Shown here in pieces: positions 5,482 to 45,248 of a DNA stretch of 64,000 nucleotides (within the stretch, counting starts at the first letter, position 1; every line of letters begins with the position of its first letter). A program made the translations under genes and the position numbers. The notes under the pieces were generated by a model, which was not told where the DNA came from, did not search any database, and worked only from the letters and a program-made list of their open reading frames with translations. The DNA is from a virus (taxonomy: Duplodnaviria; Heunggongvirae; Uroviricota; Caudoviricetes). The stretch covers positions 183,178 through 247,177 of IMG/VR virus record IMGVR_UViG_3300020048_006428. One strand, 5' to 3'.

Positions 5482-5520
5482 TTGACAAATTTTAAAAATT
5501 TTAAAATTTGTCAATTTTTA
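5482..5520 (+). terminator. rho-independent terminator hairpin
   Basis: perfect 12-bp inverted repeat ttgacaaatttt/aaaatttgtcaa followed by T-run. Confidence 0.6.
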
Positions 5521-5544
5521 TTTTGTTTTATTAAATATAATACT

Positions 5545-5552
5545 TATCTTTG
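5545..5552 (+). promoter_or_regulatory. Bacteroidota sigmaA-type -7 element TATCTTTG (TTTG at 5522-5525, 19 nt upstream)
   Basis: matches TTTG-N19-21-TAnnTTTG; ATG 18 nt downstream. Confidence 0.45.
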
Positions 5553-5569
5553 TAATTAAATCAGTAATA

Positions 5570-6577
5570 ATGAATATAAAGAATACATTTTTGAAATTGA
5601 CGAGTAAGACCTACCCATACGGATATGAAGAAGATTTGGAACATTTTTTACCAAATAAATTCAAAAAAGATTTAGGTGGTAATTATTTCTACAAATTAGG
5701 TGATAGTAAAACAGCATTTACTTGCCACTTAGACACAGCTTGTTTAGAACAAGTTAAAGTAAATCATATTATAGATGGTAATATGATCAGAACTAATGGT
5801 AAATCGATATTAGGTGCAGATGATAAAGCTGGTATGACAATACTTCTTTATATGATAGAACACAATGTTCCAGGTTTATATTGTTTTTTCATTGGTGAAG
5901 AAGTTGGTTGTATTGGTTCGGGTTATGCTTCCTTAGATAATTCATATAAAGTATACGATCGTATAATATCTTTCGATAGAAGAGGAACTACATCGGTTAT
6001 AACACACCAATCATCTAAACGTTGTTGTTCAGATGAATTTGCAAAATCCTTAGTAAAAGAATTTAATAAATATGACTTATCAATGATTGCAGATGACACT
6101 GGAATCTATACAGACTCTGCTGAATTTATAACAGTGATTTCTGAATGCACAAATATATCGGTTGGATATTATAATGAACATACATATAATGAATGTCAAG
6201 ATATTGTATACTTAGAAAAATTAGCAAAAGCAGTTGTAAGAATTGATTGGGAATCATTACCAACTAAAAGAAAGACCAATGTCATTGAATATAAAAGCAA
6301 ACCAAAATATAATGATGGTGTTGTTTATGATGGTTTTAAAAAGAAAAAGAATCGCTATAATGATAGATACAATGAATATGATGATTTTGTATACAAAGAA
6401 ATAAAAGAAATAAAATCATACAAACAACAAAACAAGCACTATTATGAACCATTTAAGCAAAGCTTATATGATGATAATATAACTAAACAAGAATTTGAAG
6501 AAATAAAAGATATGTATTTAGATTTAAATGATCCAGCTGATATGGATTATTATTTAAAAATTAAAGATTCACTTTAA
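5570..6577 (+). CDS. M42/M20-clan (MH) metallopeptidase-like protein
   Basis: GADDKAGMTILL and FFIGEEVGCIGS motifs typical of M42 glutamyl aminopeptidase/M20 family. Confidence 0.45.
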   Translation: MNIKNTFLKLTSKTYPYGYEEDLEHFLPNKFKKDLGGNYFYKLGDSKTAFTCHLDTACLEQVKVNHIIDGNMIRTNGKSILGADDKAGMTILLYMIEHNVPGLYCFFIGEEVGCIGSGYASLDNSYKVYDRIISFDRRGTTSVITHQSSKRCCSDEFAKSLVKEFNKYDLSMIADDTGIYTDSAEFITVISECTNISVGYYNEHTYNECQDIVYLEKLAKAVVRIDWESLPTKRKTNVIEYKSKPKYNDGVVYDGFKKKKNRYNDRYNEYDDFVYKEIKEIKSYKQQNKHYYEPFKQSLYDDNITKQEFEEIKDMYLDLNDPADMDYYLKIKDSL

Positions 6578-6789
6578 TCTCTAAATTTAGAAATTATATC
6601 ATCTTTTTTTATTAATTGGTCTGGTGCATTTTTTATTTGTGATTGTTCAATATTATGAGAAATTAAATATTTATTTCCTTTTTTTTCTAATATCTTTACT
6701 GGGACAATCATTTTATTATACCAATATTTAATCAGCACAATATCTTCTTCCTTATAAAAGGATTTATATTCTAAAATAAATTTCATCAT
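6574..6789 (-). CDS. small hypothetical protein
   Basis: only ORF in 230-nt gap between + strand genes; K-rich. Confidence 0.3.
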   Translation of the reverse strand: MMKFILEYKSFYKEEDIVLIKYWYNKMIVPVKILEKKGNKYLISHNIEQSQIKNAPDQLIKKDDIISKFRD

Positions 6790-6806
6790 AAATTATATAT
6801 TAAAAA

Positions 6807-7757
6807 ATGAATTCAAATTTTATAAAATTAAACAATATTTATGTAGATTTAAATCTGTATAATTTCATATCATCAACAAATAACATTATTTGTACATTAT
6901 TGATGAATACTGTTACAGAAGATGGTATATATTATTTGGAACCAACTGAAAAGCCTGATATGATTGGTTATATCCAAAAATCAAAAATAAAAGACTTTGA
7001 TAATTTCAATCCAAATGATTATAAAAAAACTACAATAAAGGTAGGAAGAATAGTTAGAAAACTATTTAATGATTTTATAATAAATCTTTATATCAGTGAT
7101 TCCAGAATAGAAGACTTTGTAAATCTATATAAGTCACAATTTGATACATCAGATTATGAACTTACAGTTGTAGAGGGTGAAGAAATAAGAATGTGGTATA
7201 ATGAAAATAATTACCATTTGGAAGATGATGAAAAAACCGGATCTCTTTGGAAATCTTGTATGCGCCAAGTAGAACGTCAAAAATTTTTAGATTTATATTG
7301 TATGAATGATAATATTAAACTACTTATAATGACAGTTAAATATTATGGTGAAACTAAATTAGTTGGTCGTGCGTTATTATGGGACGATGTTACTGTTCTA
7401 AGTGGTATTGAATCTAAAAGTGTTAACATTATGGATAGAATCTATTCCATTAACGAATCAAATGTTAATACTTTCAAAAAGTGGGCAATTGAAAACAAAT
7501 ACATCTATAAACTGGAACAAAATTCAAAAACAAGAAATTGTTTTGTAATTGATGGGAAATATAGAAATTTAAATTTGAAGCTTAACTTACAAAGATACAT
7601 TTTTAATTATTATCCATACTTAGATACATTTCCATACTTTAATTTATCAAATGGTGTCTGTTATAACACTGATTATTATGATGGGTATGAATATATATTA
7701 ACACATAGTGATGGTTCTTTAGGTGATAAAATATACGAAGACGAAGATGACTATTAA
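6807..7757 (+). CDS. hypothetical protein, acidic C-terminus (EDEDDY)
   Basis: long ORF; stop overlaps start of next gene. Confidence 0.45.
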   Translation: MNSNFIKLNNIYVDLNLYNFISSTNNIICTLLMNTVTEDGIYYLEPTEKPDMIGYIQKSKIKDFDNFNPNDYKKTTIKVGRIVRKLFNDFIINLYISDSRIEDFVNLYKSQFDTSDYELTVVEGEEIRMWYNENNYHLEDDEKTGSLWKSCMRQVERQKFLDLYCMNDNIKLLIMTVKYYGETKLVGRALLWDDVTVLSGIESKSVNIMDRIYSINESNVNTFKKWAIENKYIYKLEQNSKTRNCFVIDGKYRNLNLKLNLQRYIFNYYPYLDTFPYFNLSNGVCYNTDYYDGYEYILTHSDGSLGDKIYEDEDDY

Positions 7758-8127
7758 AGAAATTTGTAGACAATATAAAATTATAAATTATACCATAAAT
7801 CCAGATGGATCTATTGATGTAGATGGTGATGTTTATTTAGCATATAATAAATTAACAAAATTACCACTTAAATTCAATATAGTAAGTGGTTATTTTGATT
7901 GTTCTTATAATCAATTAACCAGTTTAGATGGTTGTCCTAATCATGTTGGTGGTCATTTTTATTGTGATAATAATGAATTAACCTATTTAGATGGCTGTCC
8001 ATCTTATATAGTTGGAAAATTTTATTGCTATGGTAATCCTCTACCACAAGAAGTAATAGATAATCCTATGGCAGAAATAAAGAGATTGAATAGAGAAAAG
8101 AAAATAGATATTTTACTAAACCAATAA
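7747..8127 (+). CDS. LRR-like repeat protein (LTSLDGCP / GxFYC 22-aa repeats), paralogue of 24214 and 50302
   Basis: start MTIKEICRQY overlaps upstream stop; repeats YNQLTSLDGCPNHVGGHFYCDNNELTYLDGCP; ends NPLPQEVIDNPMAEIKRLNREKK like 24214 ORF. Confidence 0.5.
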   Translation: MTIKEICRQYKIINYTINPDGSIDVDGDVYLAYNKLTKLPLKFNIVSGYFDCSYNQLTSLDGCPNHVGGHFYCDNNELTYLDGCPSYIVGKFYCYGNPLPQEVIDNPMAEIKRLNREKKIDILLNQ

Positions 8128-9711: not shown

Positions 9712-9740
9712 TTTGATATATACACTAAAAATAGAACAAT

Positions 9741-10031
9741 ATGAAGCATATAAAAACACAAAAGCAATTAAATGAAGATAAAAAATTGAATTTATCTGGT
9801 GTTATAAATAGTAAAATAAAAATCAACGAAAATGTTGATGAAAATATAAAAGTAATTGAAGATAGTTATAATGACTATATCTCTATTGAAGATAAATATA
9901 AAGAAGCTATGGCAAAACAAATTGCTATGACAGCGAAGGCATTTATTAAAAACAGAGGTGGGAATTTAGAAGATTGGTTAAGAATTTTTGCTGATGAAGA
10001 TATAGTCATTTCTAAATTGAAAGCACTTTAA
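9741..10031 (+). CDS. small protein, MKHIKTQKQLNE leader family
   Basis: N-terminus MKHIKTQKQLNEDKKLNLSGV paralogous to 10773 and 12326. Confidence 0.45.
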   Translation: MKHIKTQKQLNEDKKLNLSGVINSKIKINENVDENIKVIEDSYNDYISIEDKYKEAMAKQIAMTAKAFIKNRGGNLEDWLRIFADEDIVISKLKAL

Positions 10032-10047
10032 TTTTTATTTTATTGTT

Positions 10048-10071
10048 TATAACGGACACAGATATATGTAG
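10048..10071 (+). promoter_or_regulatory. TAACGG...ATATATGTAG conserved upstream motif (copy 1)
   Basis: ttataacggacacagatatatgtag, ~25 nt before ATG 10096; UTR tttaacacaaaacttaaataat shared with other copies. Confidence 0.5.
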
Positions 10072-10095
10072 TTTTTAACACAAAACTTAAATAAT

Positions 10096-10263
10096 ATGAA
10101 TAAAGATAATAAGAATACGGAACTTGATAACGGAGATAAAAAATTACATGTATCTGATGTTATGTGTTGTGTTTGTGAGACACCAATTTCAAGACCAGAG
10201 GTAATGGTATATAAGGATGGAAAACCTTGTCATTATATATGTTTTATTGAACATAACACATAA
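10096..10263 (+). CDS. Cys-rich small protein (55 aa), paralogue of 61348
   Basis: MNKDNKNTELDNGDKKLHVSDVMCCVCE... vs MEEVNKNTELDNTDKKLHISGVSCRFCG at 61348; below track size cutoff. Confidence 0.4.
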   Translation: MNKDNKNTELDNGDKKLHVSDVMCCVCETPISRPEVMVYKDGKPCHYICFIEHNT

Positions 10264-10282
10264 CGGTTACAAATAAATTTAG
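10256..10282 (+). promoter_or_regulatory. TAACGGTT...AAATTTAG motif (copy 2)
   Basis: cataacacataacggttacaaataaatttag before ATG 10309. Confidence 0.4.
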
Positions 10283-10308
10283 TAAATTTCTTTTTAAATA
10301 AAAATTTT

Positions 10309-10578
10309 ATGGAATACAAAACATACGATAATACAATTTTAGTAGAAGGTAAAAAATATAGATGGTCTGGATATTGTGAATCTGGATTATACACATCAAC
10401 AAAATGGACAAATCTAAAATGTAAGATTAGAAAAATTGACGATGATAAAATTTTTATTTATGACTATGATGATGATAAGGAATGGATTTTTACAAATATG
10501 GAACTTCGTGAAAATAAAGTAACATTCAAAAAAAGAAATTTATTTAATTTATTTGTTGTTATATTCAGTGAAACGTAG
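10309..10578 (+). CDS. small hypothetical protein
   Basis: ORF after motif copy 2. Confidence 0.35.
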   Translation: MEYKTYDNTILVEGKKYRWSGYCESGLYTSTKWTNLKCKIRKIDDDKIFIYDYDDDKEWIFTNMELRENKVTFKKRNLFNLFVVIFSET

Positions 10579-10602
10579 TTTGTGAGGAATGAACAAATTG
10601 AA

Positions 10603-10627
10603 TATAACGGTTGGGTATATATGAAGT
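10603..10627 (+). promoter_or_regulatory. TAACGGTTGGGTATATATGAAG motif variant (copy 3)
   Basis: tataacggttgggtatatatgaagt. Confidence 0.35.
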
Positions 10628-10706
10628 ACCTTACCACAAAACTTTAAATTTAGTATAAACTTTATAATGGTAAATCGTCAAGTGAGACACAAACAGTAGT
10701 AATTGT

Positions 10707-10732
10707 TTATAACGTTTCTCAGATATATTTAG
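10707..10732 (+). promoter_or_regulatory. TAACG..CAGATATATTTAG motif (copy 4)
   Basis: ttataacgtttctcagatatatttag, directly followed by TTTAATATATATACTAAAA motif 10741-10760. Confidence 0.5.
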
Positions 10733-10740
10733 GTTTTCTT

Positions 10741-10760
10741 TTTAATATATATACTAAAAT
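10741..10760 (+). promoter_or_regulatory. TTTAATATATATACTAAAAT conserved upstream motif (class 2)
   Basis: same motif before ATGs at 2457, 3130, 12326, 25586. Confidence 0.45.
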
Positions 10761-10772
10761 AAAAATACGAAG

Positions 10773-11003
10773 ATGAAACATTTAAAAACACAAAAACAAT
10801 TGAACGAAGGACAAGAAAACTTGAATATATCTGAAAAAGATATTTTAAAATTAGTAGAAGAAACATTCGGTGAAGAAATTTCAACTTCTTGTGCTGAAAC
10901 AGTATTAGGACTTGAAAGTTGGATTGATGGTAAAGAAGAATTTATGGAAAAGTTAGCTGAGAAGTTGAAATTGTTATTTGATGAGAGTGACTTATCTAAA
11001 TAA
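10773..11003 (+). CDS. small protein, MKHLKTQKQLNE leader family
   Basis: N-terminus MKHLKTQKQLNEGQENLNISEKD. Confidence 0.45.
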   Translation: MKHLKTQKQLNEGQENLNISEKDILKLVEETFGEEISTSCAETVLGLESWIDGKEEFMEKLAEKLKLLFDESDLSK

Positions 11004-11014
11004 TTTTATGTTTG

Positions 11015-11065
11015 CTAACGTCTAATGATAAACAATCGTTTTAATGTTGTTTATCATTTGTTATA
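11015..11065 (+). repeat. CTAACG + 10-bp-stem hairpin element (tgataaacaa..ttgtttatca), copy 1 of 4
   Basis: tgctaacgtctaatgataaacaatcgttttaatgttgtttatcatttgtta; identical core at 12574, 62048, 62338. Confidence 0.6.
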
Positions 11066-11379
11066 CACAGTAATTTGTGTAGTGGATTTAACTTTTTTTG
11101 ATTTTATAATATTTATAGAGCGGAAGTAATTCTTTGGTTTAATGAAAATGATATAGATTACTTTAATATGACTGACTTGGATATGTATATCTACTATGAT
11201 GAACTTAATTAGAAGTAGGAATGTTGAATATACCACCGAACCTCACATTACATATACACCTTGTTATACACAGTACGGGTTATTAAGATAGAATGTTTGT
11301 TTGGAATACTAATAAAAACTTTTTAAAAATGTGTGGTGGGAAATTTAATTTTGAATATTTATATATAAACTAAAATATT

Positions 11380-11523
11380 ATGAGTAAAGAAATGAGAGAA
11401 CAAATAGACAGAGTAAAGAACTGGAAACAGTTTTTGAATGAAAATATTAGTAATGGTTATACTATACACTGGTATATCATTAAAACAATGGGAAAATGTT
11501 TGGAAAAACAAAAACTTAACTGA
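11380..11523 (+). pseudogene. truncated paralogue of 62436 gene (MSKEMREQ...WKQFLNE)
   Basis: MSKEMREQIDRVKNWKQFLNENISNGY.. 47 aa vs 128-aa MSKEMREQINNWKQFLNEG at 62436; upstream flank also similar. Confidence 0.35.
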
Positions 11524-11679
11524 TAGAGAAACTAATGTGACTGATGATAAGTCGTTTGCGTTTGATTACTCATATGATTTTACAACAGGTGAATATGATG
11601 AGTAGCCGAACACCGAACTTGATTAGAAGTAGAAACTTAAATATTAACAACTGCAATAGTTTGAAACGCCTAACGGCTA

Positions 11680-11982
11680 TTGCTTATACACTTTGTTAGG
11701 CAATCGTTTATTATGAGAAGACTAATTTATAAAGAAGACCATCAAATGTATTATTTTATTCCAGTTGTTTTTGAAACTGACTCTAAAATCACAGTAGAAA
11801 AAATGGAAAAAATAAGTTATGAACCTGCTGGTGCTGGTAGAATGAGTACTGGTTTTAATGAGTTTAAAAAACTTATGGAGGATTACGGATATACTGTTAA
11901 TGAAATAGAAAGATTGGAACAAAATTCTACTCCAGAAAATAATACATTAGAAATAGTAATAGGCGCAACGGGTAACTATTAA
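11680..11982 (+). CDS. small hypothetical protein
   Basis: ORF; probable start MRRLIYKED at 11710. Confidence 0.3.
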   Translation: MLIHFVRQSFIMRRLIYKEDHQMYYFIPVVFETDSKITVEKMEKISYEPAGAGRMSTGFNEFKKLMEDYGYTVNEIERLEQNSTPENNTLEIVIGATGNY

Positions 11983-12055
11983 ATGTTGCCTAACGTTTTG
12001 CGTATATACGCAGTGCTGACGAAAACTTAAATTGAAACACAAAACTTGAAAATAT

Positions 12056-12253
12056 ATGAAAATATGGATTATTAAAAAACTTAAAGCATTGCGTATATAC
12101 GCTGTTATGTGTGGTTTTATTACACATAAGCAATATGTGGATAGTTATAAAAAATATGTAGAAAGCTCGACAGATGAAGAAGTAGGTACATTTGATTGGT
12201 TCGTTTACTATTGTAAGAAAAACAAAGAATTTAGAATTGAGCATCTTGCTTAA
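12056..12253 (+). CDS. small hypothetical protein
   Basis: ORF; contains gcgtatatacgc palindrome also present at 12003. Confidence 0.3.
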   Translation: MKIWIIKKLKALRIYAVMCGFITHKQYVDSYKKYVESSTDEEVGTFDWFVYYCKKNKEFRIEHLA

Positions 12254-12260
12254 AATCACA

Positions 12261-12285
12261 CATAACGGTTCTCAGATATATTTAG
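12261..12285 (+). promoter_or_regulatory. TAACGGTTCTCAGATATATTTAG motif (copy 5) followed by class-2 motif 12295-12312
   Basis: cataacggttctcagatatatttag ... taatttaatatatactaaaaaa before ATG 12326. Confidence 0.5.
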
Positions 12286-12325
12286 GTTTTCTAATTTAAT
12301 ATATACTAAAAAATAATTTAATAAT

Positions 12326-12547
12326 ATGAAAGATTTAAAACACATTAAAAGATTTAACGAGTCAGAAGAAAACTTGAATATATCTGATGTTAGTGATAGT
12401 AGAAAAAAACTACTTGAGTTAGTAAAATGTATGGATAGTAATATGGAAATGTTTAATAAAACAGGTGATGTTAATGATGTAGGGTATGTAGTTAGTGATA
12501 TTCGAGATATTATACATGAGATTGTTAAAATTATTGATGTGAAATAG
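12326..12547 (+). CDS. small protein, leader family (MKDLKHIKRFNESEENLNISDVSD)
   Basis: N-terminal motif shared with 9741/10773/2457 ORFs. Confidence 0.45.
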   Translation: MKDLKHIKRFNESEENLNISDVSDSRKKLLELVKCMDSNMEMFNKTGDVNDVGYVVSDIRDIIHEIVKIIDVK

Positions 12548-12560
12548 TTTTTTCTATTGT

Positions 12561-12612
12561 CACTAACGGAACATGATAAACAATCGTTTTAATGTTGTTT
12601 ATCATTTGTTAT
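12561..12612 (+). repeat. CTAACGG + hairpin element, copy 2 of 4
   Basis: cactaacggaacatgataaacaatcgttttaatgttgtttatcatttgttat. Confidence 0.6.
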
Positions 12613-12636
12613 AAGTTGTTTTTAATAAATTTGAAT

Positions 12637-13053
12637 ATGGAAAATTACATAAGGATTAAAGAAGGAGTTGATGATTTTTATTATGAAGAATTTAATATTT
12701 TAAAATCAGAAATTCAAAAAGATATAAAAGTTGAGATTATAAATAACTCTGAATTTGGAGATATTGGGGGTAGATTTAATTTTTTGAAACAGATAATATA
12801 TGTAAATTCAGAACAATCTAAAGAGAATATGTTTTTAACGCTTCTACATGAGTATGGACATTTTCTAACATTCAGAGATTATATCTATAAACATAATATA
12901 TGTCCTTATGAATATGGTAAAAATATATTAAAAAGAGAATTAGGTGCGTATTATCATGGGTGGAAATTCATAAAATCTAATTCAATTGGAGTTTCAAAAA
13001 AGAAGTGGAAAGAACATCATATTCAAATATTAAAAGATTATGGGGTATTGTGA
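12637..13053 (+). CDS. ImmA/IrrE-like HExxH metallopeptidase-like protein
   Basis: TLLHEYGHFL (HEYGH) motif; probable start MENYIRIKEG downstream of hairpin element. Confidence 0.4.
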   Translation: MENYIRIKEGVDDFYYEEFNILKSEIQKDIKVEIINNSEFGDIGGRFNFLKQIIYVNSEQSKENMFLTLLHEYGHFLTFRDYIYKHNICPYEYGKNILKRELGAYYHGWKFIKSNSIGVSKKKWKEHHIQILKDYGVL

Positions 13054-13061
13054 AAATAACT

Positions 13062-13086
13062 TATAACGGTTTGCAGCTATATTTAG
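13062..13086 (+). promoter_or_regulatory. TAACGGTTTGCAGCTATATTTAG motif (copy 6)
   Basis: identical 25-mer at 63581-63605. Confidence 0.5.
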
Positions 13087-13146
13087 TTGCGGACTTTGAA
13101 AACGAAAACTTTAAATAACCACAAAATTATGTTAGAAAACGAAAAT

Positions 13147-13362
13147 ATGAATGAAGCAGAAACTCCGCAATTGAATATAGGTGCTGTTATGTGTGCGTTG
13201 CCTTGTCCTTTTTGTGGCTCGGATATTGAAATTGAAACAACAACTTTTGGAGATAGCATGACTGATTTTTTTAGAGTAAACTGCAAACAAAAAGGACACT
13301 CACTTGATTGGTGGGAAGAAGATAAAAATAAAGCTATTGCTGTTTGGAACGAGAGGCAATGA
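13147..13362 (+). CDS. Lar-family-like zinc-ribbon protein (restriction alleviation-like), copy A
   Basis: ALPCPFCGSD...CKQKGH; near-identical to 63660 ORF; start chosen by paralogue (MNEAETPQLNIGAVMC). Confidence 0.45.
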   Translation: MNEAETPQLNIGAVMCALPCPFCGSDIEIETTTFGDSMTDFFRVNCKQKGHSLDWWEEDKNKAIAVWNERQ

Positions 13363-13422
13363 CACATAACTATAATATATCAACACCTATTACTAAAACC
13401 TCAACAAACAATCATTTAGACA

Positions 13423-14223
13423 ATGAAAAAAACAGATTACTACGAAATTTGTAATCAAAAATTGAAGTATTTAAATTATTCAGATAGGACAGTAAAGTCC
13501 TATCTGTTTTATATAAAACAATTTTTTGATGATATTAAAATATCACCAACAAGATTAACTTCTAAGGATTTCCAATCCTATTTAGATAACTATAACTTCA
13601 CTTCAGTTTCTCAACAGAATCAAGTAATTAACGCAATCCGATTTTTGTATAAATTCGGATTAAATAAAAAATATGATAAGGTTAGTTTTAAAAGACCTAA
13701 ATCAGAAAAGAAATTACCAAAGGTTATTGATGGAAATTTTATTAAGGAACAACTATCAAAAATTGAAAATATAAAACATAAGGCAATACTAACTTTAACC
13801 TATTCCGTTGGACTTAGAGTATCAGAAGTAATTAACCTTAAAATTGAAAATCTTGATTCTAAACGAATGATTATACATATCAAAAATGCCAAAGGTAGAA
13901 AAGATAGAATAGTTCCGCTGTCTAAAACTGTTTTGGAATTATTAAGGATATATTGGAAAGAATATAAACCAAAGGAATATCTTTTCAATGGTCAAAAAAC
14001 TTCAAAATATAGCTATACTAGTTGTAATAAAATCGTTAAAAAGTACTTAGGTGAAGAATATCATATACATCAATTAAGACATTCTTGTTTCACCAATTTA
14101 TTAGAAGTCGGTACTGATTTACGTATAATCCAAAAAATTGCAGGACATTCTAATGTTAAAACAACCGAAATTTATACACACGTTTCAAATCAATTATTAA
14201 GTAAAGTAAACTTACCTATTTAG
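13423..14223 (+). CDS. tyrosine site-specific recombinase (phage integrase family, XerC/D-size)
   Basis: R (LRVSE), K (KGRKDR), HQLRHS (HxxR), H (AGHSN) and catalytic Y (EIYTHV) all present. Confidence 0.8.
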   Translation: MKKTDYYEICNQKLKYLNYSDRTVKSYLFYIKQFFDDIKISPTRLTSKDFQSYLDNYNFTSVSQQNQVINAIRFLYKFGLNKKYDKVSFKRPKSEKKLPKVIDGNFIKEQLSKIENIKHKAILTLTYSVGLRVSEVINLKIENLDSKRMIIHIKNAKGRKDRIVPLSKTVLELLRIYWKEYKPKEYLFNGQKTSKYSYTSCNKIVKKYLGEEYHIHQLRHSCFTNLLEVGTDLRIIQKIAGHSNVKTTEIYTHVSNQLLSKVNLPI

Positions 14224-14226
14224 CAT

Positions 14227-14266
14227 AAAAAAAAGTCCAAATATTTAAAATATTTGGACTTTTTTA
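14227..14266. terminator. bidirectional rho-independent terminator hairpin
   Basis: aaaaaagtccaaatatttaaaatatttggactttttt between convergent genes. Confidence 0.6.
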
Positions 14267-14300
14267 GTATTTATTTTTCTAAGCGGATAAAATATAAAGT

Positions 14301-14338
14301 AAAAAAGTCCCAAACATATTAAATGTTTGGGACTTTTG
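14301..14338. terminator. second terminator hairpin (serves minus-strand operon)
   Basis: aaaaaagtcccaaacatattaaatgtttgggactttt; 12-bp stem. Confidence 0.6.
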
Positions 14339-14341: not shown

Positions 14342-15427
14342 TTAGTTAGCTACTGTAAGGAATATCTTTCTATTCATTCTATCAACTGCAATTACTTTAA
14401 CTTTTATTTCACTGCCTTGTTCTAATTTCTTAGAAGATTTTTCCAATTCAGAAATATGTATTAGACCATTTGTTTCACCATCCAATCCAATCAATACACC
14501 AAATGATTTTGTATCTTTAACTATACCTTTAATTGTTTGACCAATTTTGATAGAGTCCCAAAGAGATTCACGAAGAACTTGTGTAAGAATTATCTTATCT
14601 TTGATAATCTCTTTAATGAAGAAATCAATTTCATAACCTGGTAGAATTTCATCAATTCTATCAACCAATTCCGGATTAAGGTTAGTTTTGTGTATCATAC
14701 CAGTCAAACATTCTTTGAATTCAACAAATACACCAAATTGAGTAGTTCCTGTTACGATACCAGTATAAACAACATTGTTTTTAAGTTCTTTAATCGCAAG
14801 TGGTATCAAAGTTTGAAGATATTTTCTTCTGCTTACAATATAAGTTCCTTCTTCTTGTGAAAAGGATTCAATCATAACATTGAAAGTCTGTCCAACAATT
14901 GCATTAGGTGATGAAAGTTTATTTATACCAGCTAATGTATTTGGCATAAATCCAGGTAAAGTAACACTTTCATATGAAATATCAACTGTATATCCAGCTG
15001 GAGTAAGTTCTTTAATGTATGCCATAACAGATACACCACCTTTTAGATTAGTCAAAGATTTTCTTGCTTTGCTTTCATAAAGTTCAGATAAACTACCATT
15101 TATTTCATAGCTTGTGTTGTTTACCTTTGTAATAAGAATGTCTACTTTATCACCAATGTTAGTATTAACTAAATACTTAGATTCACTTGGTTTATTTTCC
15201 ATTCTAACATAATCCTTAAATGATCCATCAAAAGCAAAATCAACACCTGATATACCAACATATGTTAGTGTAACAACTTTTCCTTCAACCGGAACTTGAA
15301 TATCAGATTCATCATAAAGTTTCAATAGGTCTTCTTGGGACATATATTTTTCATCAACTACCAATTCAGTAGCAAAAAAATCGGTATCCATAATTCTAGG
15401 ATCACCATAATAATTTTTCTTAGCCAT
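14342..15427 (-). CDS. rpsA: ribosomal protein S1 (bS1) homologue, four S1 domains
   Basis: IVSRRKYL (cf. E. coli VVSRRAV); S1 domains e.g. GQTIKGIVKDTKSFGVLIGLDGETNGLIHISEL and YTGIVTGTTQFGVFVEF; N-terminal arrangement like E. coli S1. Confidence 0.65.
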   Translation of the reverse strand: MAKKNYYGDPRIMDTDFFATELVVDEKYMSQEDLLKLYDESDIQVPVEGKVVTLTYVGISGVDFAFDGSFKDYVRMENKPSESKYLVNTNIGDKVDILITKVNNTSYEINGSLSELYESKARKSLTNLKGGVSVMAYIKELTPAGYTVDISYESVTLPGFMPNTLAGINKLSSPNAIVGQTFNVMIESFSQEEGTYIVSRRKYLQTLIPLAIKELKNNVVYTGIVTGTTQFGVFVEFKECLTGMIHKTNLNPELVDRIDEILPGYEIDFFIKEIIKDKIILTQVLRESLWDSIKIGQTIKGIVKDTKSFGVLIGLDGETNGLIHISELEKSSKKLEQGSEIKVKVIAVDRMNRKIFLTVAN

Positions 15428-29369: not shown

Positions 29370-30479
29370 ATGATTATTAACCTCAAGAGTCAAACAGATT
29401 TATCCGGATTCTATATTATTTATGAAGGATCAACTAATTTAGAAAAACCTGGTTGGTATGGATTATCACATTTAATGGAGCATTTAATGTGCAAAAATTT
29501 TGAACATCTTAGAGAAGATTTTGAAAGAGAAGGAATAGATTGGAATGCATTTACAGATAGTAATAATGTAGTTTTCTATTTTACTGGTTTAGAAGAAAAC
29601 ATAAACGCACGTAAATATGAAATTTTTGACTTAATTTCACAATTCAACATTACTAAAGAAGACTTTGAAAAAGAAAGAAATATTGTACTTCAAGAATATA
29701 CAGATTATTTTGGAAAACAAACAGAATCACACACTTTAAATTTAGGTAGAAAACTATTTTTGGATTATGATCCAATTGGAAAAAGAAAAGATTTAGAAAG
29801 TCTTAAATTTATGGATTGCCTTAATTTCTTTGAATTACAATTTCAAAACCCAACAAAGATTATTAATGTATCAGCTAAAACCAAGTTTGATAGAAATGAT
29901 ATAGATTTTTTTGTTCCAAATATTAATAAGAAAGTTAAATTTGGACCCTATCAAGAAGCTACTATTGAAAAGATGAATGATTTTGGTGATAAATCTTCTT
30001 TGATTATGGTTTCACCTATATCAGAATCCGACTTTGATTATATCACTTTTATTAATAGTATGTTATCATCCGGATTGTCTTCACCCCTTTATAAAGAAGT
30101 AAGAGAAAAAAGAGGATTAGTATACTATATTAGATGTTCTCAAGTAAGACTTTTTAATCAAGGAATTACTAAAATTAGCACACAAACATTTCATAAAAAT
30201 GTTGAAGATGTTTATGATGCAGTACGAACTGTAATTAGTAATCCAAATAAATATATCACTAAAAAAAGATTAGAAACTATTAGAGAATATTATTTAATTA
30301 AGTTAAAAAAGGATAAGATTAATCAATTTAGTAATGTAAATCATTGGATGTTACCGAAAGGTTGGTCTGTTAAAGATATTGTTGAAAAAGTTAACATAAA
30401 CAAAATTAGAGAAGTTTATGATAAATATTTTGACTTTGATAATTTTTATTTATCAAATGATAAAACAGAATTTAAATAA
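29370..30479 (+). CDS. M16-family (insulinase-like) zinc peptidase, single-domain
   Basis: inverted zinc motif GLSHLMEHLMCK (HxxEH) followed by NAFTDSNNVVFY. Confidence 0.55.
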   Translation: MIINLKSQTDLSGFYIIYEGSTNLEKPGWYGLSHLMEHLMCKNFEHLREDFEREGIDWNAFTDSNNVVFYFTGLEENINARKYEIFDLISQFNITKEDFEKERNIVLQEYTDYFGKQTESHTLNLGRKLFLDYDPIGKRKDLESLKFMDCLNFFELQFQNPTKIINVSAKTKFDRNDIDFFVPNINKKVKFGPYQEATIEKMNDFGDKSSLIMVSPISESDFDYITFINSMLSSGLSSPLYKEVREKRGLVYYIRCSQVRLFNQGITKISTQTFHKNVEDVYDAVRTVISNPNKYITKKRLETIREYYLIKLKKDKINQFSNVNHWMLPKGWSVKDIVEKVNINKIREVYDKYFDFDNFYLSNDKTEFK

Positions 30480-30505
30480 AATTTTTTTTATCCAAAAAGT
30501 TTCCA

Positions 30506-30513
30506 TATCTTTG
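30506..30513 (+). promoter_or_regulatory. sigmaA-type -7-like element TATCTTTG
   Basis: 22 nt before ATG 30535. Confidence 0.35.
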
Positions 30514-30534
30514 TTCTAATAAAAAATTAAGAAA

Positions 30535-32822: not shown

Positions 32823-32896
32823 GATCCTGTAGCGTAATTGGGTAACGCAAATTGCTTTTAACAATTTAGATGCAAGTTCAAATCTTGCCAGGATCA
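32823..32896 (+). tRNA. tRNA-Lys (anticodon TTT)
   Basis: acceptor gatcctg/caggatc, T-loop gcaagttcaaatcttgc, anticodon loop cttttaa. Confidence 0.6.
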
Positions 32897-32919
32897 CAAA
32901 AATATTAAATTTTAAAAAT

Positions 32920-32996
32920 GGTGATGTAGCTGAATTGGTCTAGCACCTGATTGAAGATTAGGGATTATGTGGGTTCAAATCCCATCGTCACCACCA
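32920..32996 (+). tRNA. tRNA-Phe (GAA), CCA encoded
   Basis: acceptor ggtgatg/cgtcacc, anticodon loop ttgaaga, gggttcaaatccc T-arm, 3' acca. Confidence 0.6.
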
Positions 32997-33004
32997 ATAA
33001 ATAA

Positions 33005-33086
33005 GGAAGAGTACACGCTGGAATGTGGGGCTGTTTTGAAAACAGTTAAGTCTTACGATTTGAGGGTTCGAGTCCCTCTTCTTCCT
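33005..33086 (+). tRNA. tRNA-Ser (TGA), long variable arm
   Basis: acceptor ggaagag/ttcttcc, anticodon loop tttgaaa, T-arm gagggttcgagtccctc. Confidence 0.5.
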
Positions 33087-33097
33087 CAAATTACATT

Positions 33098-33169
33098 TTG
33101 TATGAACCCAAATGGCGAGGGACAATATTGTGAATATTGGTTTAGCGAGTTCGATCCTCGTCATACAAG
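33098..33169 (+). tRNA. tRNA with anticodon GTG (His-like but no G-1)
   Basis: acceptor ttgtatg/catacaa, anticodon stem caata/tattg loop ttgtgaa, T-arm gcgagttcgatcctcgt. Confidence 0.4.
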
Positions 33170-33180
33170 CAAAATTATAT

Positions 33181-33268
33181 GGAAGCGTAGCATAATGGTA
33201 ATGCAGCAGTCTTGAAAACTGCCGTGTCGTGTAAAAGCGGCTTGTGAGTTCGAATCTCACCGCTTCTT
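33181..33268 (+). tRNA. tRNA-Ser (TGA), long variable arm
   Basis: anticodon stem gcagt/actgc loop cttgaaa; T-arm gtgagttcgaatctcac. Confidence 0.5.
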
Positions 33269-33275
33269 CTAAAAT

Positions 33276-33363
33276 GGAAGATTGACAGAATGGTATTGTG
33301 CTGTCCTGCTAAGACAAGGCTATCGGTAACACCGGTACATAGGTTCGAATCCTATATCTTCCG
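33276..33363 (+). tRNA. tRNA-Ser (GCT), long variable arm
   Basis: acceptor ggaagat/atcttcc perfect; anticodon loop ctgctaa; T-arm ataggttcgaatcctat. Confidence 0.5.
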
Positions 33364-33372
33364 CAAAATTTT

Positions 33373-33448
33373 GGTGATGTAGCTGAATGGTCTAGCACCT
33401 GATTGAAGATCAGGGATTATGTGGGTTCAAGTCCCACCATCACCACCA
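33373..33448 (+). tRNA. tRNA-Phe (GAA), CCA encoded, second copy
   Basis: acceptor ggtgatg/catcacc; anticodon stem cctga/tcagg loop ttgaaga; 3' acca. Confidence 0.6.
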
Positions 33449-33451
33449 AAT

Positions 33452-33524
33452 AGGGATATAGTTCAATGGTTTAGAATAATCGGTTCCAACCCGATTGATG
33501 TGGGTTCGAATCCTACTGTCCCTG
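33452..33524 (+). tRNA. tRNA-Trp (CCA)
   Basis: anticodon stem atcgg/ccgat loop ttccaac; T-arm gtgggttcgaatcctac; acceptor agggata/tgtccct. Confidence 0.6.
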
Positions 33525-33708
33525 CAAACTTTTTTAAAATTTAAAAACATTTAGAAAAATAAAGTAACAAATATATGGAATGTCCAAAATGTAAAAATGA
33601 TGAAAATCTACATTATAATTTAGATTATTCTAAAAAAGAATTACCCATAATTGATTCTTTGTAATGAATGTGGTGAATTATTTGAATGTAAAGAAGAAAA
33701 GTAAACAT

Positions 33709-33781
33709 GGTGTGTGTAGCTCAGAGGCAGAGCATTCGGTTGTGATTCGAAATGTCGGGATATCGTAATTCCTCATGCACC
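33709..33781 (+). tRNA. tRNA-His (GTG) with G-1:C73
   Basis: D-arm tagctcagaggcagagca; anticodon stem ttcgg/tcgaa loop ttgtgat; extra 5' G pairing with discriminator C; T-loop unusual. Confidence 0.45.
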
Positions 33782-33799
33782 CAAAAAAATTATACAATT

Positions 33800-33873
33800 G
33801 GCACTATACCCGTAAAGGCATCCGGAATTGATTCTTGCTCAAAATTATGTAGGTTCGACTCCTACTAGTGTCA
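33800..33873 (+). tRNA. tRNA-like, possibly Lys (CTT)
   Basis: acceptor ggcacta/tagtgtc; T-arm gtaggttcgactcctac; anticodon loop ttcttgc; D-stem imperfect. Confidence 0.3.
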
Positions 33874-34253
33874 CACAAACTAAAAAAATATATATGATAA
33901 TCCACAAGCACGAAAATTCTGATAGTATGTCAGAATATGAATATAAAGATTTAGAAGCACTTGATATAGATGAAATCTGGTATAAATATAATTGTGGTAG
34001 CTATGAAGGTAGTGGTCAACTAATTGCAAGAAAGGCGATTTGTTTTCACATCATGATATGGGGCATTGTTCTTGTTATGGTGGTGTTGAAAGATTTGAAT
34101 TTAATGGTAGACCTTTAGATGAATTAATATCTTATCTAAAGAAAAATCAAGAATATTATTATAATGAAATAATGGAAGTTTTGAGTTTTATGAAAGTTTA
34201 TATTAGAAATTTAAATAATTAGGAAGATAAACTGTTTTGGTGAACAGTCACGA

Positions 34254-34808
34254 TTGGAAATCGTTGAGTACGTAGTTATGTATCAGTTTCGATTACTGTA
34301 TCTTCCGCTATATATGATGTCATTTGATGAATTTTGGGAATGTTTTGATGAAGCATTTAATGATCCAATCCAAATAAAGTGGATTGATAAACCTTATGAA
34401 TACATAGGGTTATTTACTTTGAATAATAAAGTCTATAATATTTATACTATAAATAAAGGTGATAATATTTGGACTTTTAAATTTTATGTTTATTTAGATG
34501 GTAAATTATCACCTAATCTAACAAATGATTATAAAAATATGTTTAGGGTTTTACCAACAATTAAACAAGGATTTATTGATCTTATAAATGAAAAAAATCC
34601 AGATGGTATAATATTTGGTGCTTTAGATGAATCAGAAGTAAGAAAGAAACTATATAATAGTTTTTCTATTGATATATCAAAGCAATTTGATTATGAATAT
34701 ACATCAAAAGAAAAAGATAATAAGAAAATTTATATCTTATATAAACCAAATATAAATAAAGAAATACTTTTTAATAAAATAATTCAAATTACAACTGATG
34801 AAATATGA
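34254..34808 (+). CDS. hypothetical protein
   Basis: ORF after tRNA cluster. Confidence 0.4.
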   Translation: MEIVEYVVMYQFRLLYLPLYMMSFDEFWECFDEAFNDPIQIKWIDKPYEYIGLFTLNNKVYNIYTINKGDNIWTFKFYVYLDGKLSPNLTNDYKNMFRVLPTIKQGFIDLINEKNPDGIIFGALDESEVRKKLYNSFSIDISKQFDYEYTSKEKDNKKIYILYKPNINKEILFNKIIQITTDEI

Positions 34809-41871: not shown

Positions 41872-42173
41872 ATGAAAATAGAAAGAATTTTAATGAATAA
41901 TATAAACAAAGATATGTTAAAAGAGTATATCAACACTAAATATGCAGATAAATATAATGTGATTGATATTAAATCAATTGTTCCTTATAAGTTTCTTTAT
42001 AAGGAAGGATTTTTTGATACTATTCAGATAGAATGGAATGGTTATTGGGTTATAGAGATGGTAGTTGGGTTTATCATAACGATAGAACAATTCAATTTAA
42101 TTTATCTTCTTATCAAGAATGGTTGGCTGATATTAGAAATAAAAATTTAGAAGAATTACTAAGTAATATATGA
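41872..42173 (+). pseudogene. mosaic array gene 1, apparent -1 frameshift after IEWNGYW
   Basis: frame A gives IEWNGYW then junk to 42150; -1 frame gives YRDGSWVYHNDRTIQFNLSSYQEWLADIRNKNLEELL matching family C-terminus, stop 42171-42173. Confidence 0.4.
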
Positions 42174-42454
42174 TAAACAAGTATATGTTAAAAGAGTATA
42201 TCAATACTGAATTTGCAGATGTATATAATTTGATTGATATTAAATCAATTGCTATTTATACAAAAGTATTTGGTGGTAATATAATAGCTGATATTATTCA
42301 GATAGAGTGGGTTGGTTGGTGGAGTAATTATAATGGGACTTGGATTTATAGTGATAATAGAACAAATCAATTTAATTTAGATTTATATAAAGAATGGTTG
42401 GTTGATATTAGAGATAAAAAATTAGAAGAATTATTGGATTATACCTTAGATTAA
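42170..42454 (+). CDS. mosaic array gene 2 (IEW..W / NRTNQFNLDLYKEWLVDIRDKKLEELL family)
   Basis: ORF; C-terminal 215 nt identical to gene 3. Confidence 0.5.
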   Translation: MINKYMLKEYINTEFADVYNLIDIKSIAIYTKVFGGNIIADIIQIEWVGWWSNYNGTWIYSDNRTNQFNLDLYKEWLVDIRDKKLEELLDYTLD

Positions 42455-42555
42455 TTTTTATGATAATAGACAAGGATAAATTAAAAGAGTATATCCATAC
42501 AAAATATGGACATAAATATCGTGTGGTTGAAATTCATACAATATCCATTCGTAAG
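42341..42555 (+). repeat. 215-nt direct repeat (1 mismatch) with 42691-42905, period 350 nt
   Basis: tggatttatagtgataa(t/a)agaacaaatcaattt ... atatccattcgtaag in both. Confidence 0.8.
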
Positions 42556-42804
42556 GTTACATTTTATTGGGATGAAATAAATCAAGATTCAAGATACTAT
42601 TTAACTGCTAAGAAAAATAGATCTGTTCAAATTGATATGATTAAAATAGAATGGTCTGGTTGTATTAATGAATACTATAATCTAAATACTTGGATTTATA
42701 GTGATAAAAGAACAAATCAATTTAATTTAGATTTATATAAAGAATGGTTGGTTGATATTAGAGATAAAAAATTAGAAGAATTATTGGATTATACCTTAGA
42801 TTAA
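42460..42804 (+). CDS. mosaic array gene 3
   Basis: 5' ~100 nt identical to gene 4, 3' ~120 nt identical to gene 2. Confidence 0.5.
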   Translation: MIIDKDKLKEYIHTKYGHKYRVVEIHTISIRKVTFYWDEINQDSRYYLTAKKNRSVQIDMIKIEWSGCINEYYNLNTWIYSDKRTNQFNLDLYKEWLVDIRDKKLEELLDYTLD

Positions 42805-42809
42805 TTTTT

Positions 42810-43127
42810 ATGATAATAGACAAGGATAAATTAAAAGAGTATATCCATACAAAATATGGACATAAATATCGTGTGGTTGAAATTCATACAATATCCATTC
42901 GTAAGATTGAATATTATGAAGAATCTGTTGATTTTAATGGTATATATGATGTTATTAAGATAGAATGGGCTGGTTGGAAAGTTGTTAGTAAACATACACA
43001 TAATCCAAAATTTAAGGATAATTGGACTTATGTTGTTAATAGATTAAGCCGATTTAAGTTAGAAGATTATCAAGAATGGTTGACTGGTATTAGAGATAAA
43101 AAATTAGAAGAATTATTGGATTATTAA
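42810..43127 (+). CDS. mosaic array gene 4
   Basis: shares 5' module with gene 3, divergent middle. Confidence 0.5.
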   Translation: MIIDKDKLKEYIHTKYGHKYRVVEIHTISIRKIEYYEESVDFNGIYDVIKIEWAGWKVVSKHTHNPKFKDNWTYVVNRLSRFKLEDYQEWLTGIRDKKLEELLDY

Positions 43128-43160
43128 TTAATATATACATTATAAAATTTAACTAACTAT

Positions 43161-43340
43161 ATGGAAAAATTAAACGAATTATTAAATCCAAAAAAGGTTT
43201 TAACAGATGATGAAAAAATTCAATTGTTGAAAAATAAACATCCTGGTAAATATGATGATTTACAAAAACCAACACTTGGTAGCGCATTTAGAAATTGGTC
43301 AGATGAAGATATTCAAGAAGTCTTGGATCTACTTAAATAG
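43161..43340 (+). CDS. small hypothetical protein (59 aa)
   Basis: MEKLNELLNPKKVLTDDEKIQLLKNKHPGKYDDL..; below track cutoff. Confidence 0.3.
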   Translation: MEKLNELLNPKKVLTDDEKIQLLKNKHPGKYDDLQKPTLGSAFRNWSDEDIQEVLDLLK

Positions 43341-43357
43341 ATATTAAAAAAACAATA

Positions 43358-43391
43358 TAAACAATCGTCAATTATATGGCGATTGTTTTTT
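43358..43391 (+). terminator. terminator hairpin
   Basis: aaacaatcgtcaattatatggcgattgtttttt. Confidence 0.5.
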
Positions 43392-43426
43392 AATTAAACA
43401 AAACAAAATTATAGAATATAATATAT

Positions 43427-43618: not shown

Positions 43619-43620
43619 CT

Positions 43621-45187: not shown

Positions 45188-45218
45188 ATTAAAATTTTGT
45201 TATATAAAATATATTACT

Positions 45219-45226
45219 TATCTTTG
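45219..45226 (+). promoter_or_regulatory. Bacteroidota sigmaA-type promoter: TTTG (45196-45199) - N19 - TATCTTTG
   Basis: 23 nt before ATG 45249. Confidence 0.45.
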
Positions 45227-45248
45227 TTTCAAAGTATATAAAACTAAA

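Follow-up and report, generated by a model that had tools for sequence, protein, structure and literature searches.

We analysed a stretch of 64,000 nucleotides (nt) of tailed-phage DNA, positions 183,178 to 247,177 of the IMG/VR virus record IMGVR_UViG_3300020048_006428, referred to below as the window. It contains two arrays of small co-oriented genes, array A near its beginning and array B at its end, and a tyrosine recombinase gene directly downstream of array A. Array A and the adjoining region 13367-14223 probably form a complete integron-like platform, with gene cassettes bounded by TAAC, hairpin recombination sites, an integration site and a recombinase. The platform would be a variant of the integron kind, residing in phages of the Bacteroidota type. 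The case is built on comparison of sequences, which delimits the cassettes and shows selection on the hairpin, complementarity between the two ends of the same cassette, an insertion polymorphism, and linkage of the recombinase with the array.

In the proposed mechanism, the recombinase would excise cassettes as circles by exchange between two sites. The circles would insert at the TAAC of the recombinase-proximal site TAAC-TATAATATAT, or at another cassette site. The substrate would be the folded sense strand, as folded attC is for integron integrases. Co-infecting phages would thereby trade small accessory genes, many of them involved in counter-defence. That the recombinase is the acting enzyme, that its substrate is single-stranded DNA, and that circles are the intermediates, we infer.

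Hairpin sites and cassette boundaries

The motif TAACG-N8-9-TAWRTKWAG has eleven matches in the window, all on the + strand and all within the two arrays, with none expected by chance; a variant at 62837 completes the twelve copies counted in an earlier reading of this DNA without database searches (the sequence-only reading). This motif, TAACGGTT..ATATATTTAG, is the 5' arm of a long inverted repeat, whose partner lies 40 to several hundred nt downstream and ends in TTGTTA. Its interpretation as a promoter was dropped after the complement turned up downstream. The other recurrent element of that reading, CTAACG followed by a hairpin, indeed occurs in four copies (Table 1). Both elements had been taken for promoter or terminator repeats; they belong to a single kind of hairpin site, the former being its 5' arm and the latter its compact form.

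The sites follow the plan TAAC-G (the cassette boundary falls between C and G), arm, loop, complementary arm, TT-GTTA, and the stems covary. The complete 5' site of a cassette would consist of R'' (8 nt and TAAC), a spacer of 4-5 nt, the 5' arm, the loop, the 3' arm, TT, and R' (GTTA and 8 nt), where R'' would come from the cassette's own 3' end after circularisation. The defining features of attC are found: R'' ends in AAC and R' starts with GTT, L''/L' boxes and a spacer without pairing are present, and it is the structure more than the sequence that is conserved. The R boxes, ..TAAC/GTTA.., match the consensus of the Vibrio VCR sites. They also match the attC sites of PH101 printed in PMC9892861.

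In the commonest forms, the loop comprises an A-rich leader, the start codon and some codons after it, so that translation extends through the 3' arm and the GTTA box. It is for this reason that unrelated small proteins share the peptides ..KLH(I/V)S(D/G)V.C or ..NLNISDV.., which are the imprint of a DNA element; the proteins with the former peptide, listed as paralogues by the sequence-only reading, are not related by it. The N-terminus MSKEMR(E/Q/K/N).I....(K/N)(F/W).. is also common to many unrelated cassette proteins, in the window and in L020-L218 (L numbers denote compared loci). The module MSKEMR..I....F sits 3' of the hairpin, outside the arms, and is not explained by translation of an arm.

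The compact form consists of TAACG-N4, a stem of 8-11 bp, the invariant loop TCGTTTTAATG, the other half of the stem, and TTGTTA. A scan of IMG/VR found it in at least 119 stretches on viral contigs of 4 to 464 kb, with 76 distinct versions among the matches listed. In an alignment of 46 versions from these listed matches, 94% of the inner stem is paired and double-sided changes occur at nine of eleven pairs. None of 500 shuffles reaches the observed covariation score. TAAC and GTTA are invariant, as are two further stem positions that were free in the search pattern. One member of the family had been predicted independently as an attC site by HattCI: the primer sequence of P12002L_attC1, from a Polaribacter phage, is exactly the compact hairpin (PMC9892861). 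P12002L, a phage of Flavobacteriia, carries this hairpin between DNA methyltransferase genes, with four long-arm relatives.

The long-arm form (93-94 distinct units) has 181-182 G·T and 18 T·G pairs against four A·C and three C·A. This bias, 199 against 7, persists when units are chosen by Watson-Crick pairs alone. As the G·T wobbles occur on the sense strand only, the sense strand is the one that folds. The predicted folding energies of the + strand, -19.4, -24.2 and -24.0 kcal/mol, are 5-13 kcal/mol better than those of the - strand, which are -13.2, -13.9 and -11.3; the last pair of values is the RNAfold result for the site at 10050-10170. Judged by these patterns of change, the hairpin is under selection.

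No Rfam family matched the hairpins: only tRNAs were found at the gathering score, and a permissive scan of 9.6-14.4 kb stayed at chance level. A sigma-70 scan produced 48 matches against 36 expected and is uninformative at the GC content of the window, 24%. The canonical terminators of the region are unlike the site hairpins. A minimal site, GCCTAAC-GGCTATTGCTTATACACTTT-GTTAGGC, was observed at 11671-11706; it has integron-like core and inverse-core heptamers and nearly no inner stem, and the same sequence occurs in L163, at about 6590.

Where unrelated arrays have a segment in common at 97% identity or more, its ends tend to fall at TAAC: the distance is at most 4 nt for ten of 17 right ends and at most 7 nt for 18 of 29 left ends, with a background of 6%. 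Nearly all inter-gene junctions in the arrays of the compared loci have the form AT(T/G)(A/G)NNNN-TAACG. In the strain L012/L015, whose flanks are 99% identical, the whole block 9712-13361 is swapped for other cassettes; the breakpoints are 9711 and 13362, and homology restarts at ACACATAAC joined to TATAATATATC. L012 also has an extra gene of 129 amino acids (aa) between two terminators (6391-6941, compared with 14277-14300 of the window). It would have come by a different insertion route, since it is not bounded by TAAC.

A single-cassette insertion was found between L002 (together with L006, L008, L009) and L004. The identity of these loci amounts to 100% over 9.9 kb and 99.99% over 7.4 kb, and their sole difference is one cassette of 531 nt: GCTAAC is followed by the cassette GGTTGGG...GTATAAC and then by TATTATATATAAGC. 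The cassette sits at TAAC-TATTATATATA, approximately 60 nt upstream of the recombinase start, and TAAC is the only homology at its junctions.

The best-sampled cassette encodes a zinc-ribbon protein of the Lar family. The sequence-only reading correctly described it as a direct repeat with a Lar-like protein in both copies (13062-13361 and 63581-63880, 89% identical, 50.5 kb apart); the whole Lar cassettes of arrays A and B match at 271 of 303 positions. Across all loci, the block of 302-303 nt occurs in at least six upstream and at least five downstream contexts, and its identity opens at or just after one TAACG and closes at the next TAAC. One of the options considered in that reading, a duplicated mobile cassette, thus holds for this block, which is bounded by TAAC in at least five unrelated phage contexts. 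The DNA of copy B is 99.3-100% identical to the copies in L002/L004, L003 and L010, where both flanks are unrelated. Since it is near-identical to foreign copies and only 89% identical to copy A, array B would have acquired its Lar cassette separately. The exact protein of copy B was found in 79 blocks of the assembly collection, and the end of the Lar cassette in just two additional loci of IMG/VR.

By the curated cutoffs, copy B belongs to the Lar family, with 29.4 bits for PF14354 (cutoff 28.6) and 42.8 for TIGR03655 (cutoff 39.6), whereas copy A scores 28.5 and 39.0, less than 1 bit under both. In copy A, the internal R' box, GTTATGTGT at 13186, lies within the coding sequence.

It is a hallmark of integron cassettes that the site is split on insertion and becomes whole again once the cassette ends are joined. 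In the phage cassettes, the 8 nt after the internal GTTA pair with the cassette's own tail at 6.54 of 8 positions, compared with 4.44 when the adjacent upstream tail is taken and 4.54 with random ones. Counted over the four variable nucleotides alone, the own, adjacent and random tails reach 3.55 of 4, 1.94 and 1.99. The own tail outscores the adjacent one in 150 of 181 distinct cassettes. In array A, most cassettes pair with their own tails at 11-11.5 of 12 positions, and in array B six of the eight do so at 10-11.5 of 12. To judge from these pairings, this is the integron-cassette signature of circularisation; the cassettes would be discrete circularisable units, in which the site is restored from their own two ends.

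Recombinase and integration site

The recombinase gene is intact, as had been noticed in the sequence-only reading, and the regions of its HxxR, H and Y residues align to XerA and IntI4; the catalytic tyrosine is part of a TEIYTHV motif. The protein has the SAM-like core-binding and catalytic domains only. Its best NCBIfam match is XerA_Arch (184 bits, cutoff 220). The XerD and XerC models yield about 146 bits (cutoffs 330-335), the integron-integrase model TIGR02249 146 bits in two pieces (cutoff 265), and NF011946 93 bits (cutoff 435); these scores place the protein neither in IntI nor among the Xer dimer resolvases. The best PDB matches are 4a8e (XerA-like) and 2a3v (IntI4). The IntI-specific insert of about 48 residues is absent, 41 residues of the recombinase corresponding to 89 in VchIntIA (2a3v). 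On profile scores, the recombinase is nearest to archaeal XerA and integron integrases, and lies under the cutoffs of the XerA, XerC, XerD and IntI models.

Relatives of the recombinase were collected from 80 IMG/VR loci, and linkage was counted in the 53 loci with at least 51% identity. The junction TAAC-TA(T/G/C)(T/A/C)ATAT(A/G)T was found in 44 of the 53 loci, 20-130 nt before the recombinase start codon. The 6 kb upstream on the same strand contain 172 site cores, compared with 6, 10 and 7 in the other three compartments. Conversely, in short loci around compact hairpins the recombinase homologues are downstream and co-oriented in 14 cases of 14. In all 53 loci phage DNA flanks the integration site on both sides. 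As with attI, the site is next to the integrase gene and is the entry point of cassettes, which is seen from the junction and the one-cassette insertion. The sequence-only reading correctly sensed that the recombinase and the repeats belong together. The arrays beside the recombinase clade of 51-57% identity are too short for comparing the core sequence with the clade.

A recombinase homologue with 53% identity was observed in the cultured Bacteroidota isolate Sunxiuqinia indica RC1_OXG_1F (L220; NZ_WVEM01000012.1, 1-974), with the junction GGTAAC-TAGTATATATA. It is located at the very start of a 144-kb contig, where the assembly may have broken in an array. This homologue may reflect lysogeny of such elements. 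In L010, an IS605-type OrfB/TnpB gene (6662-7873) was observed 2 kb downstream of the recombinase.

There is no recombinase next to array B. The sequence-only reading had the start of a second recombinase gene running off the window; instead, the 12-codon relic 63948-63983 (MGNYYEIQNKN, then the stop TGA) is followed, past the end of the window, by a gene of a 193-aa BFN/UVR nuclease. Past the Lar stop codon, the resemblance to copy A is lost within about 100 nt, and a tblastn search of the window and the following 10 kb detected no further recombinase. Array B would be an analogue of a CALIN, an attC cluster without integrase, that has kept a relic of the integration site.

Arrays, cargo and genomic setting

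The coordinates of the arrays, sites and neighbouring features are given in Table 1. The terminator pair described near the recombinase by the sequence-only reading is present and closes convergent transcription units, outside the cassette system. The ImmA-like HEYGH protein of that reading is present as well (cassette 10 of array A), while its metallopeptidase matches are weak: Peptidase_M78 with E = 0.0011, below its cutoff, and phrog_87 with 5.7e-6. This protein and Lar are the only recognisable cassette products in the window.

Table 1. Features of the two cassette arrays and their surroundings (positions in the window; ORF, open reading frame)
Feature	Position	Strand	Remarks
Cassette array A	9712-13370	+	11 co-oriented cassettes, each from the G after one TAAC through the next TAAC
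Array A, cassette 1	9712-10053	+	5'-truncated; ORF 9741-10031
Array A, cassette 2	10054-10264	+	
Array A, cassette 3	10265-10608	+	
Array A, cassette 4	10609-10713	+	Degenerate, without ORF
Array A, cassette 5	10714-11019	+	
Array A, cassette 6	11020-11674	+	Degenerate; MSKEMREQ ORF 11380-11523, truncated to 47 aa
Array A, cassette 7	11675-11994	+	
Array A, cassette 8	11995-12266	+	
Array A, cassette 9	12267-12567	+	
Array A, cassette 10	12568-13067	+	Metalloprotease-like ORF 12637-13053
Array A, cassette 11 (Lar copy A)	13068-13370	+	Zinc-ribbon ORF ends at 13362 (77 aa as called in the parent contig)
Complete attC-like site, example	10050-10170	+	R'' TAAC 10050-10053; 5' arm ACAGATATATGTAGTTTTT; loop with leader, ATG (10096) and first codons; 3' arm AAAAATTACATGTATCTGAT (codons KKLHVSD)
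R' of the example site	10159-10170	+	GTTATGTGTTGT; pairs 11.5/12 with own tail ATAACACATAAC at 10253-10264
Compact (H-type) attC-like hairpin	11016-11066	+	TAACG-N4-ATGATAAACAA-TCGTTTTAATG-TTGTTTATCAT-TTGTTA; further copies start at 12564, 62038 and 62328
attI-like integration site	13367-13422	+	TAAC of the last cassette, then TATAATATATCAACACC, up to the recombinase ATG
Tyrosine recombinase, proposed cassette integrase	13423-14223	+	Xer/IntI clade, 266 aa; PF00589 (125.7 bits) and PF13495
Terminators	14229-14265, 14303-14337		Hairpin and T-run
Cassette array B	61223-63889	+	No recombinase; remnant 61223-61294, then eight cassettes
Array B, cassette 1	61295-61577	+	
Array B, cassette 2	61578-61827	+	
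Array B, cassette 3	61828-62041	+	
Array B, cassette 4	62042-62331	+	
Array B, cassette 5	62332-62840	+	MSKEMREQ ORF 62436-62822, 128 aa
Array B, cassette 6	62841-63154	+	
Array B, cassette 7	63155-63586	+	Two small ORFs, the 50-aa one wholly within the hairpin loop
Array B, cassette 8 (Lar copy B)	63587-63889	+	ORF 63660-63881, 73 aa
attI-like relic and first 12 recombinase codons	63886-63983	+	TAAC, then TAGAATATATCAACACC; aligned to 13371-13480

In the loci, 519 distinct cassettes were counted, half of them longer than 413 nt. The 474 proteins of 35 aa or more that they encode fall into 416 clusters. A Pfam scan of the 76 cluster representatives of at least 120 aa identified ten DNA methyltransferases, one Mom protein, one type I Thoeris inhibitor Tad6, three GNAT acetyltransferases and three YopX proteins; Lar is also carried in cassettes. 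On these family matches, the recognisable cargo is largely counter-defence. One cassette of 157 nt without ORF, 100% identical in L002 (9094-9250) and L010 (3072-3228), contains two T-arm-like strings of the GGTTCGAxTCC type, GGTTCGATTCC and GGTTCGACTCC. It was considered as a tRNA-like cassette, and ARAGORN calls no tRNA in it (L002 9094-9250).

The window is embedded in a 353,919-bp metagenome contig, ERZ27262918 k141_234028 (locus L001), from which the 10 kb past the window's end were read as well. The host of this phage-like contig of about 354 kb probably belongs to Bacteroidota, because, among cultured phages, those of Polaribacter and Cellulophaga encode the integrases nearest to the recombinase (38-39% identity), its nearest homologues in bacterial genomes are from Bacteroidota, and promoter boxes of the TAnnTTTG type recur in the window (repeat families D13, D20). 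A box ..(C/T)TTATCTTTGT.. was observed at 5513-5553, 30462-30521, 45187-45227, 50855-50914 and 53293-53352; it matches the -7 promoter consensus TAnnTTTG of Bacteroidota, as known from Bacteroides promoters. These boxes hint at promoters of the host RNA polymerase and at a Bacteroidota host. A megablast search with a 6-kb query from the region of array A had no match among cultured phages, and the sole match of array B in distant blastn was the uncultured 462-kb phage LR756500.1.

Larger proteins of the window match phage families (helicase, homing endonuclease, ATPase, peptidase). Directly past the recombinase, on the - strand, there is a gene of a 361-aa protein with S1 RNA-binding domains (14342-15427; Pfam S1). 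Translation initiation in Bacteroidota is thought to rely on S1 over Shine-Dalgarno pairing, and the presence of an S1 protein near the cassettes is worth noting given that cassette start codons lie within hairpin loops. A cluster at 32823-34308, with a higher GC content of 36%, has eight tRNA genes by ARAGORN (Lys, two Phe, four Ser, Trp), and Rfam adds two tRNAs to the window (33710-33781, 33800-33873). In the region 41897-43782, diverged units (families D1, D4, D5, D7, D17) follow one another in tandem at intervals of about 275-350 nt, and the region looks like a locally amplified small-gene family. A perfect direct repeat of 110 nt was observed at 54157-54266 and 54548-54657 (spacing 391 nt). 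At approximately 54.5 kb (about 1044 in L001), the window and L001 differ by a short replaced segment, with flanks 100% identical.

Alternative explanations and known systems

Several observations weigh against an integron-like platform. The strand that folds is also that of the mRNA, and the start codon lies inside the hairpin; a role at the RNA level could therefore explain the strand asymmetry, and long-range RNA pairing could account for some of the complementarity to the own tail. Lar copies that are otherwise identical vary in the first few nucleotides behind the left TAACG, which leaves the left crossover located less precisely than to one base. Clean indels of a single cassette amount to one case. 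No match to a self-joined Lar cassette (tail, TAAC, G and its own 5' arm, as in a circle or a tandem copy) was observed in the metagenome contigs of JGI. Many loci with the hairpin, and array B, have no recombinase nearby. The IntI-specific domain contacts extrahelical bases in attC, and as it is absent here, recognition of folded DNA would need another solution. Finally, P12002L_attC1 was the sole one of six phage sites not recombined by IntI1 (PMC9892861). A site adapted to another recombinase would behave in this way, but the finding is also just a negative one.

One alternative, which we consider unlikely, is that the hairpins are RNA devices: RNase III-type sites, panhandles protecting the ends, or translational gates, with the 12-bp pairing of R' and tail closing the message and mobility being a by-product. 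The confinement of G·T wobbles to the sense strand and the strongly asymmetric folding energies would be expected then, as would arms of about 20-22 bp, a loop with the leader and ATG, the presence of R' and the own tail in one transcript, and a recombinase devoid of the IntI domain for folded attC. However, an RNA device leaves unexplained why DNA identity between unrelated phages ends at TAAC, why a cassette is inserted precisely beside the recombinase, and why the TAAC-TA..ATAT junction is conserved and the recombinase is linked to the array. Moreover, the upstream TAAC and the own tail compete for one GTTA, as in a site split by integration, and Rfam has no match. An RNA role (processing, stability, translational gating) may exist alongside the DNA role.

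Another alternative is suggested by the PeSL cassettes of T4-type phages, which are composed of a sigma-70 promoter and a terminator and recombine by homology (Arbiol et al. 2010, PMC2839356). The arrays would then be regulatory cassettes, that is, modules of promoter, leader and terminator in a hyperplastic early region, shuffled by homologous recombination in co-infection, and the recombinase would be unrelated to them, being for example a lysogeny integrase or a dimer resolvase. Indeed, each small ORFan gene is preceded by a conserved element and a leader, the elements are common to many phages, and arrays without recombinase exist (array B, phage P12002L). T4-type phages do shuffle genes, even as mini-circles, via promoter/stem-loop repeats (PMC2839356), and the variable bases after the left TAACG of identical Lar copies are what heteroduplex repair might give. 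We nevertheless find this quite unlikely. The junction homology of the single-cassette indel is just 4 nt (TAAC), and breakpoints concentrate at TAAC instead of spreading across the 20-60 nt of conserved sequence. Promoters and terminators give no role to own-tail complementarity over hundreds of nucleotides; covarying stems and an invariant loop are not needed by a plain terminator, and the canonical terminators of the region look different. The linkage of recombinase and array through a fixed junction in 44 of 53 loci is also left without a reason.

In the model of the sequence-only reading, the 330-bp blocks have a recombinase each and would delimit a 50-kb segment that can invert or be excised, or else be direct repeats on the genome scale. 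This model is highly improbable: there is a direct repeat of about 300 nt, 89% identical over 50.5 kb of distance, and an intact recombinase adjoins copy A, but copy B has none, contrary to the two recombinase-bearing modules assumed and in accordance with what that reading itself named as its refutation, the shared part is a single mobile cassette with a decayed integration site, present in unrelated phages too, and copy B is nearer to foreign copies (99.3-100%) than to copy A (89%). Two further candidates were rejected. Transposition of the IS200/IS605 HUH type does not apply, as the OrfB gene of L010 is outside the array, downstream of the recombinase; an inverton or shufflon (inversion between TAAC and GTTA) does not apply either, as the arm mismatches are strand-specific G·T wobbles, unlike those of duplex inverted repeats.

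We return to the integron-like platform. The common view of integrons is that they are devices of bacteria and, since recently, of archaea, with IntI as the defining feature, and bacterial integrons were recently found to stockpile cassettes of anti-phage defence. To our knowledge, only stray attC clusters have been reported in phages. In the literature, our coverage of which is incomplete and does not prove absence, we found no phage array described together with an Xer-like recombinase and an integration site of its own. A complete platform of this kind on phages, driven by a non-IntI recombinase, would show that viruses run a cassette economy of their own. It would explain why near-identical small ORFan early genes, anti-restriction methyltransferases, Lar, Mom and the Thoeris inhibitor occur in unrelated phages. 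Cassettes are easily delimited from TAAC to TAAC, and the 519 cassettes are an enriched library of candidate anti-defence genes. The recombinase would be a natural comparator for finding which features of IntI are needed in recombination at hairpin sites. For annotation, the sites are a caution: apparent protein paralogy and "promoter motifs" can be imprints of recombination sites.

We give even chances to a broader proposal, namely that this is a second, phage-borne lineage of integron-type gene capture, in which a minimal Xer-like recombinase handles folded single-stranded sites without the IntI domain, Bacteroidota phages from siphoviruses of about 30 kb to jumbo phages of more than 450 kb share a rapidly exchanged bank of counter-defence genes, and the site, as it surrounds the start codon, doubles as a translational gate. 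If true, it would bear on the origin of integrons from Xer recombinases and would be the phage-side mirror of the defence cassettes in bacterial integrons.

The likeness to integrons is extensive. Both have a tyrosine recombinase of the Xer/IntI clade beside a conserved integration site, and an array of small co-oriented cassettes, the newest of which abuts the recombinase. The sites are imperfect palindromes in which an asymmetric spacer without pairing lies between the outer R box (..TAAC/GTTA..) and the inner L box, and the loop varies; the crossover is at the AAC/GTT edge of the R box, and the R box is split by integration and rebuilt from the two ends of the cassette. One strand folds better, the folding strand of the phage corresponding to the "bottom" strand of integrons, and the cargo is extremely diverse and mostly ORFan. 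When the phage platform is read in the antisense direction, its recombinase gene points away from the site, as in integrons, and the cassettes end in R''-L''-loop-L'-R' with exchange at the GTT edge of R'. On the other hand, the phage recombinase has 266 aa, lacks the IntI insert and stays under the cutoffs of the IntI models. The phage ORFs face the recombinase, being on the opposite strand compared with integrons, and the site is 5' of each gene, often enclosing the leader and start codon and being partly translated. The compact form with the invariant loop TCGTTTTAATG is particular to the phages, the platform is located on phage genomes of 28-464 kb, its cargo serves counter-defence and not defence or resistance, and no common promoter of the Pc type is evident.

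Integrase-less clusters of predicted attC sites (CALINs), with two or three sites each, were described in a few phages by Qi et al. 2023 (PMC9892861); they had no dedicated recombinase or integration site and were regarded as stray parts of bacterial integrons. The P12002L_attC1 hairpin is identical to the compact form described here and array B likewise lacks a recombinase, whereas the phage sites as a whole are a large family with its own Xer-like recombinase. With the PeSL cassettes, the arrays share conserved stem-loop repeats around small ORFans, location in hypervariable phage regions, swaps at the repeats and proposed circles; they differ in the 4-nt core, in a site that is split and restored as in site-specific recombination, and in the linked recombinase. 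Finally, the single-stranded DNA genome of phage CTXphi enters the host dif site as a folded single-stranded attP hairpin, by means of the host enzymes XerCD. There too, the hairpin is formed by one specific strand of phage DNA, and the Xer-type recombinase acting on it has no IntI insert; here, in contrast, an enzyme encoded by the phage itself would move single-gene cassettes within double-stranded DNA phage genomes.

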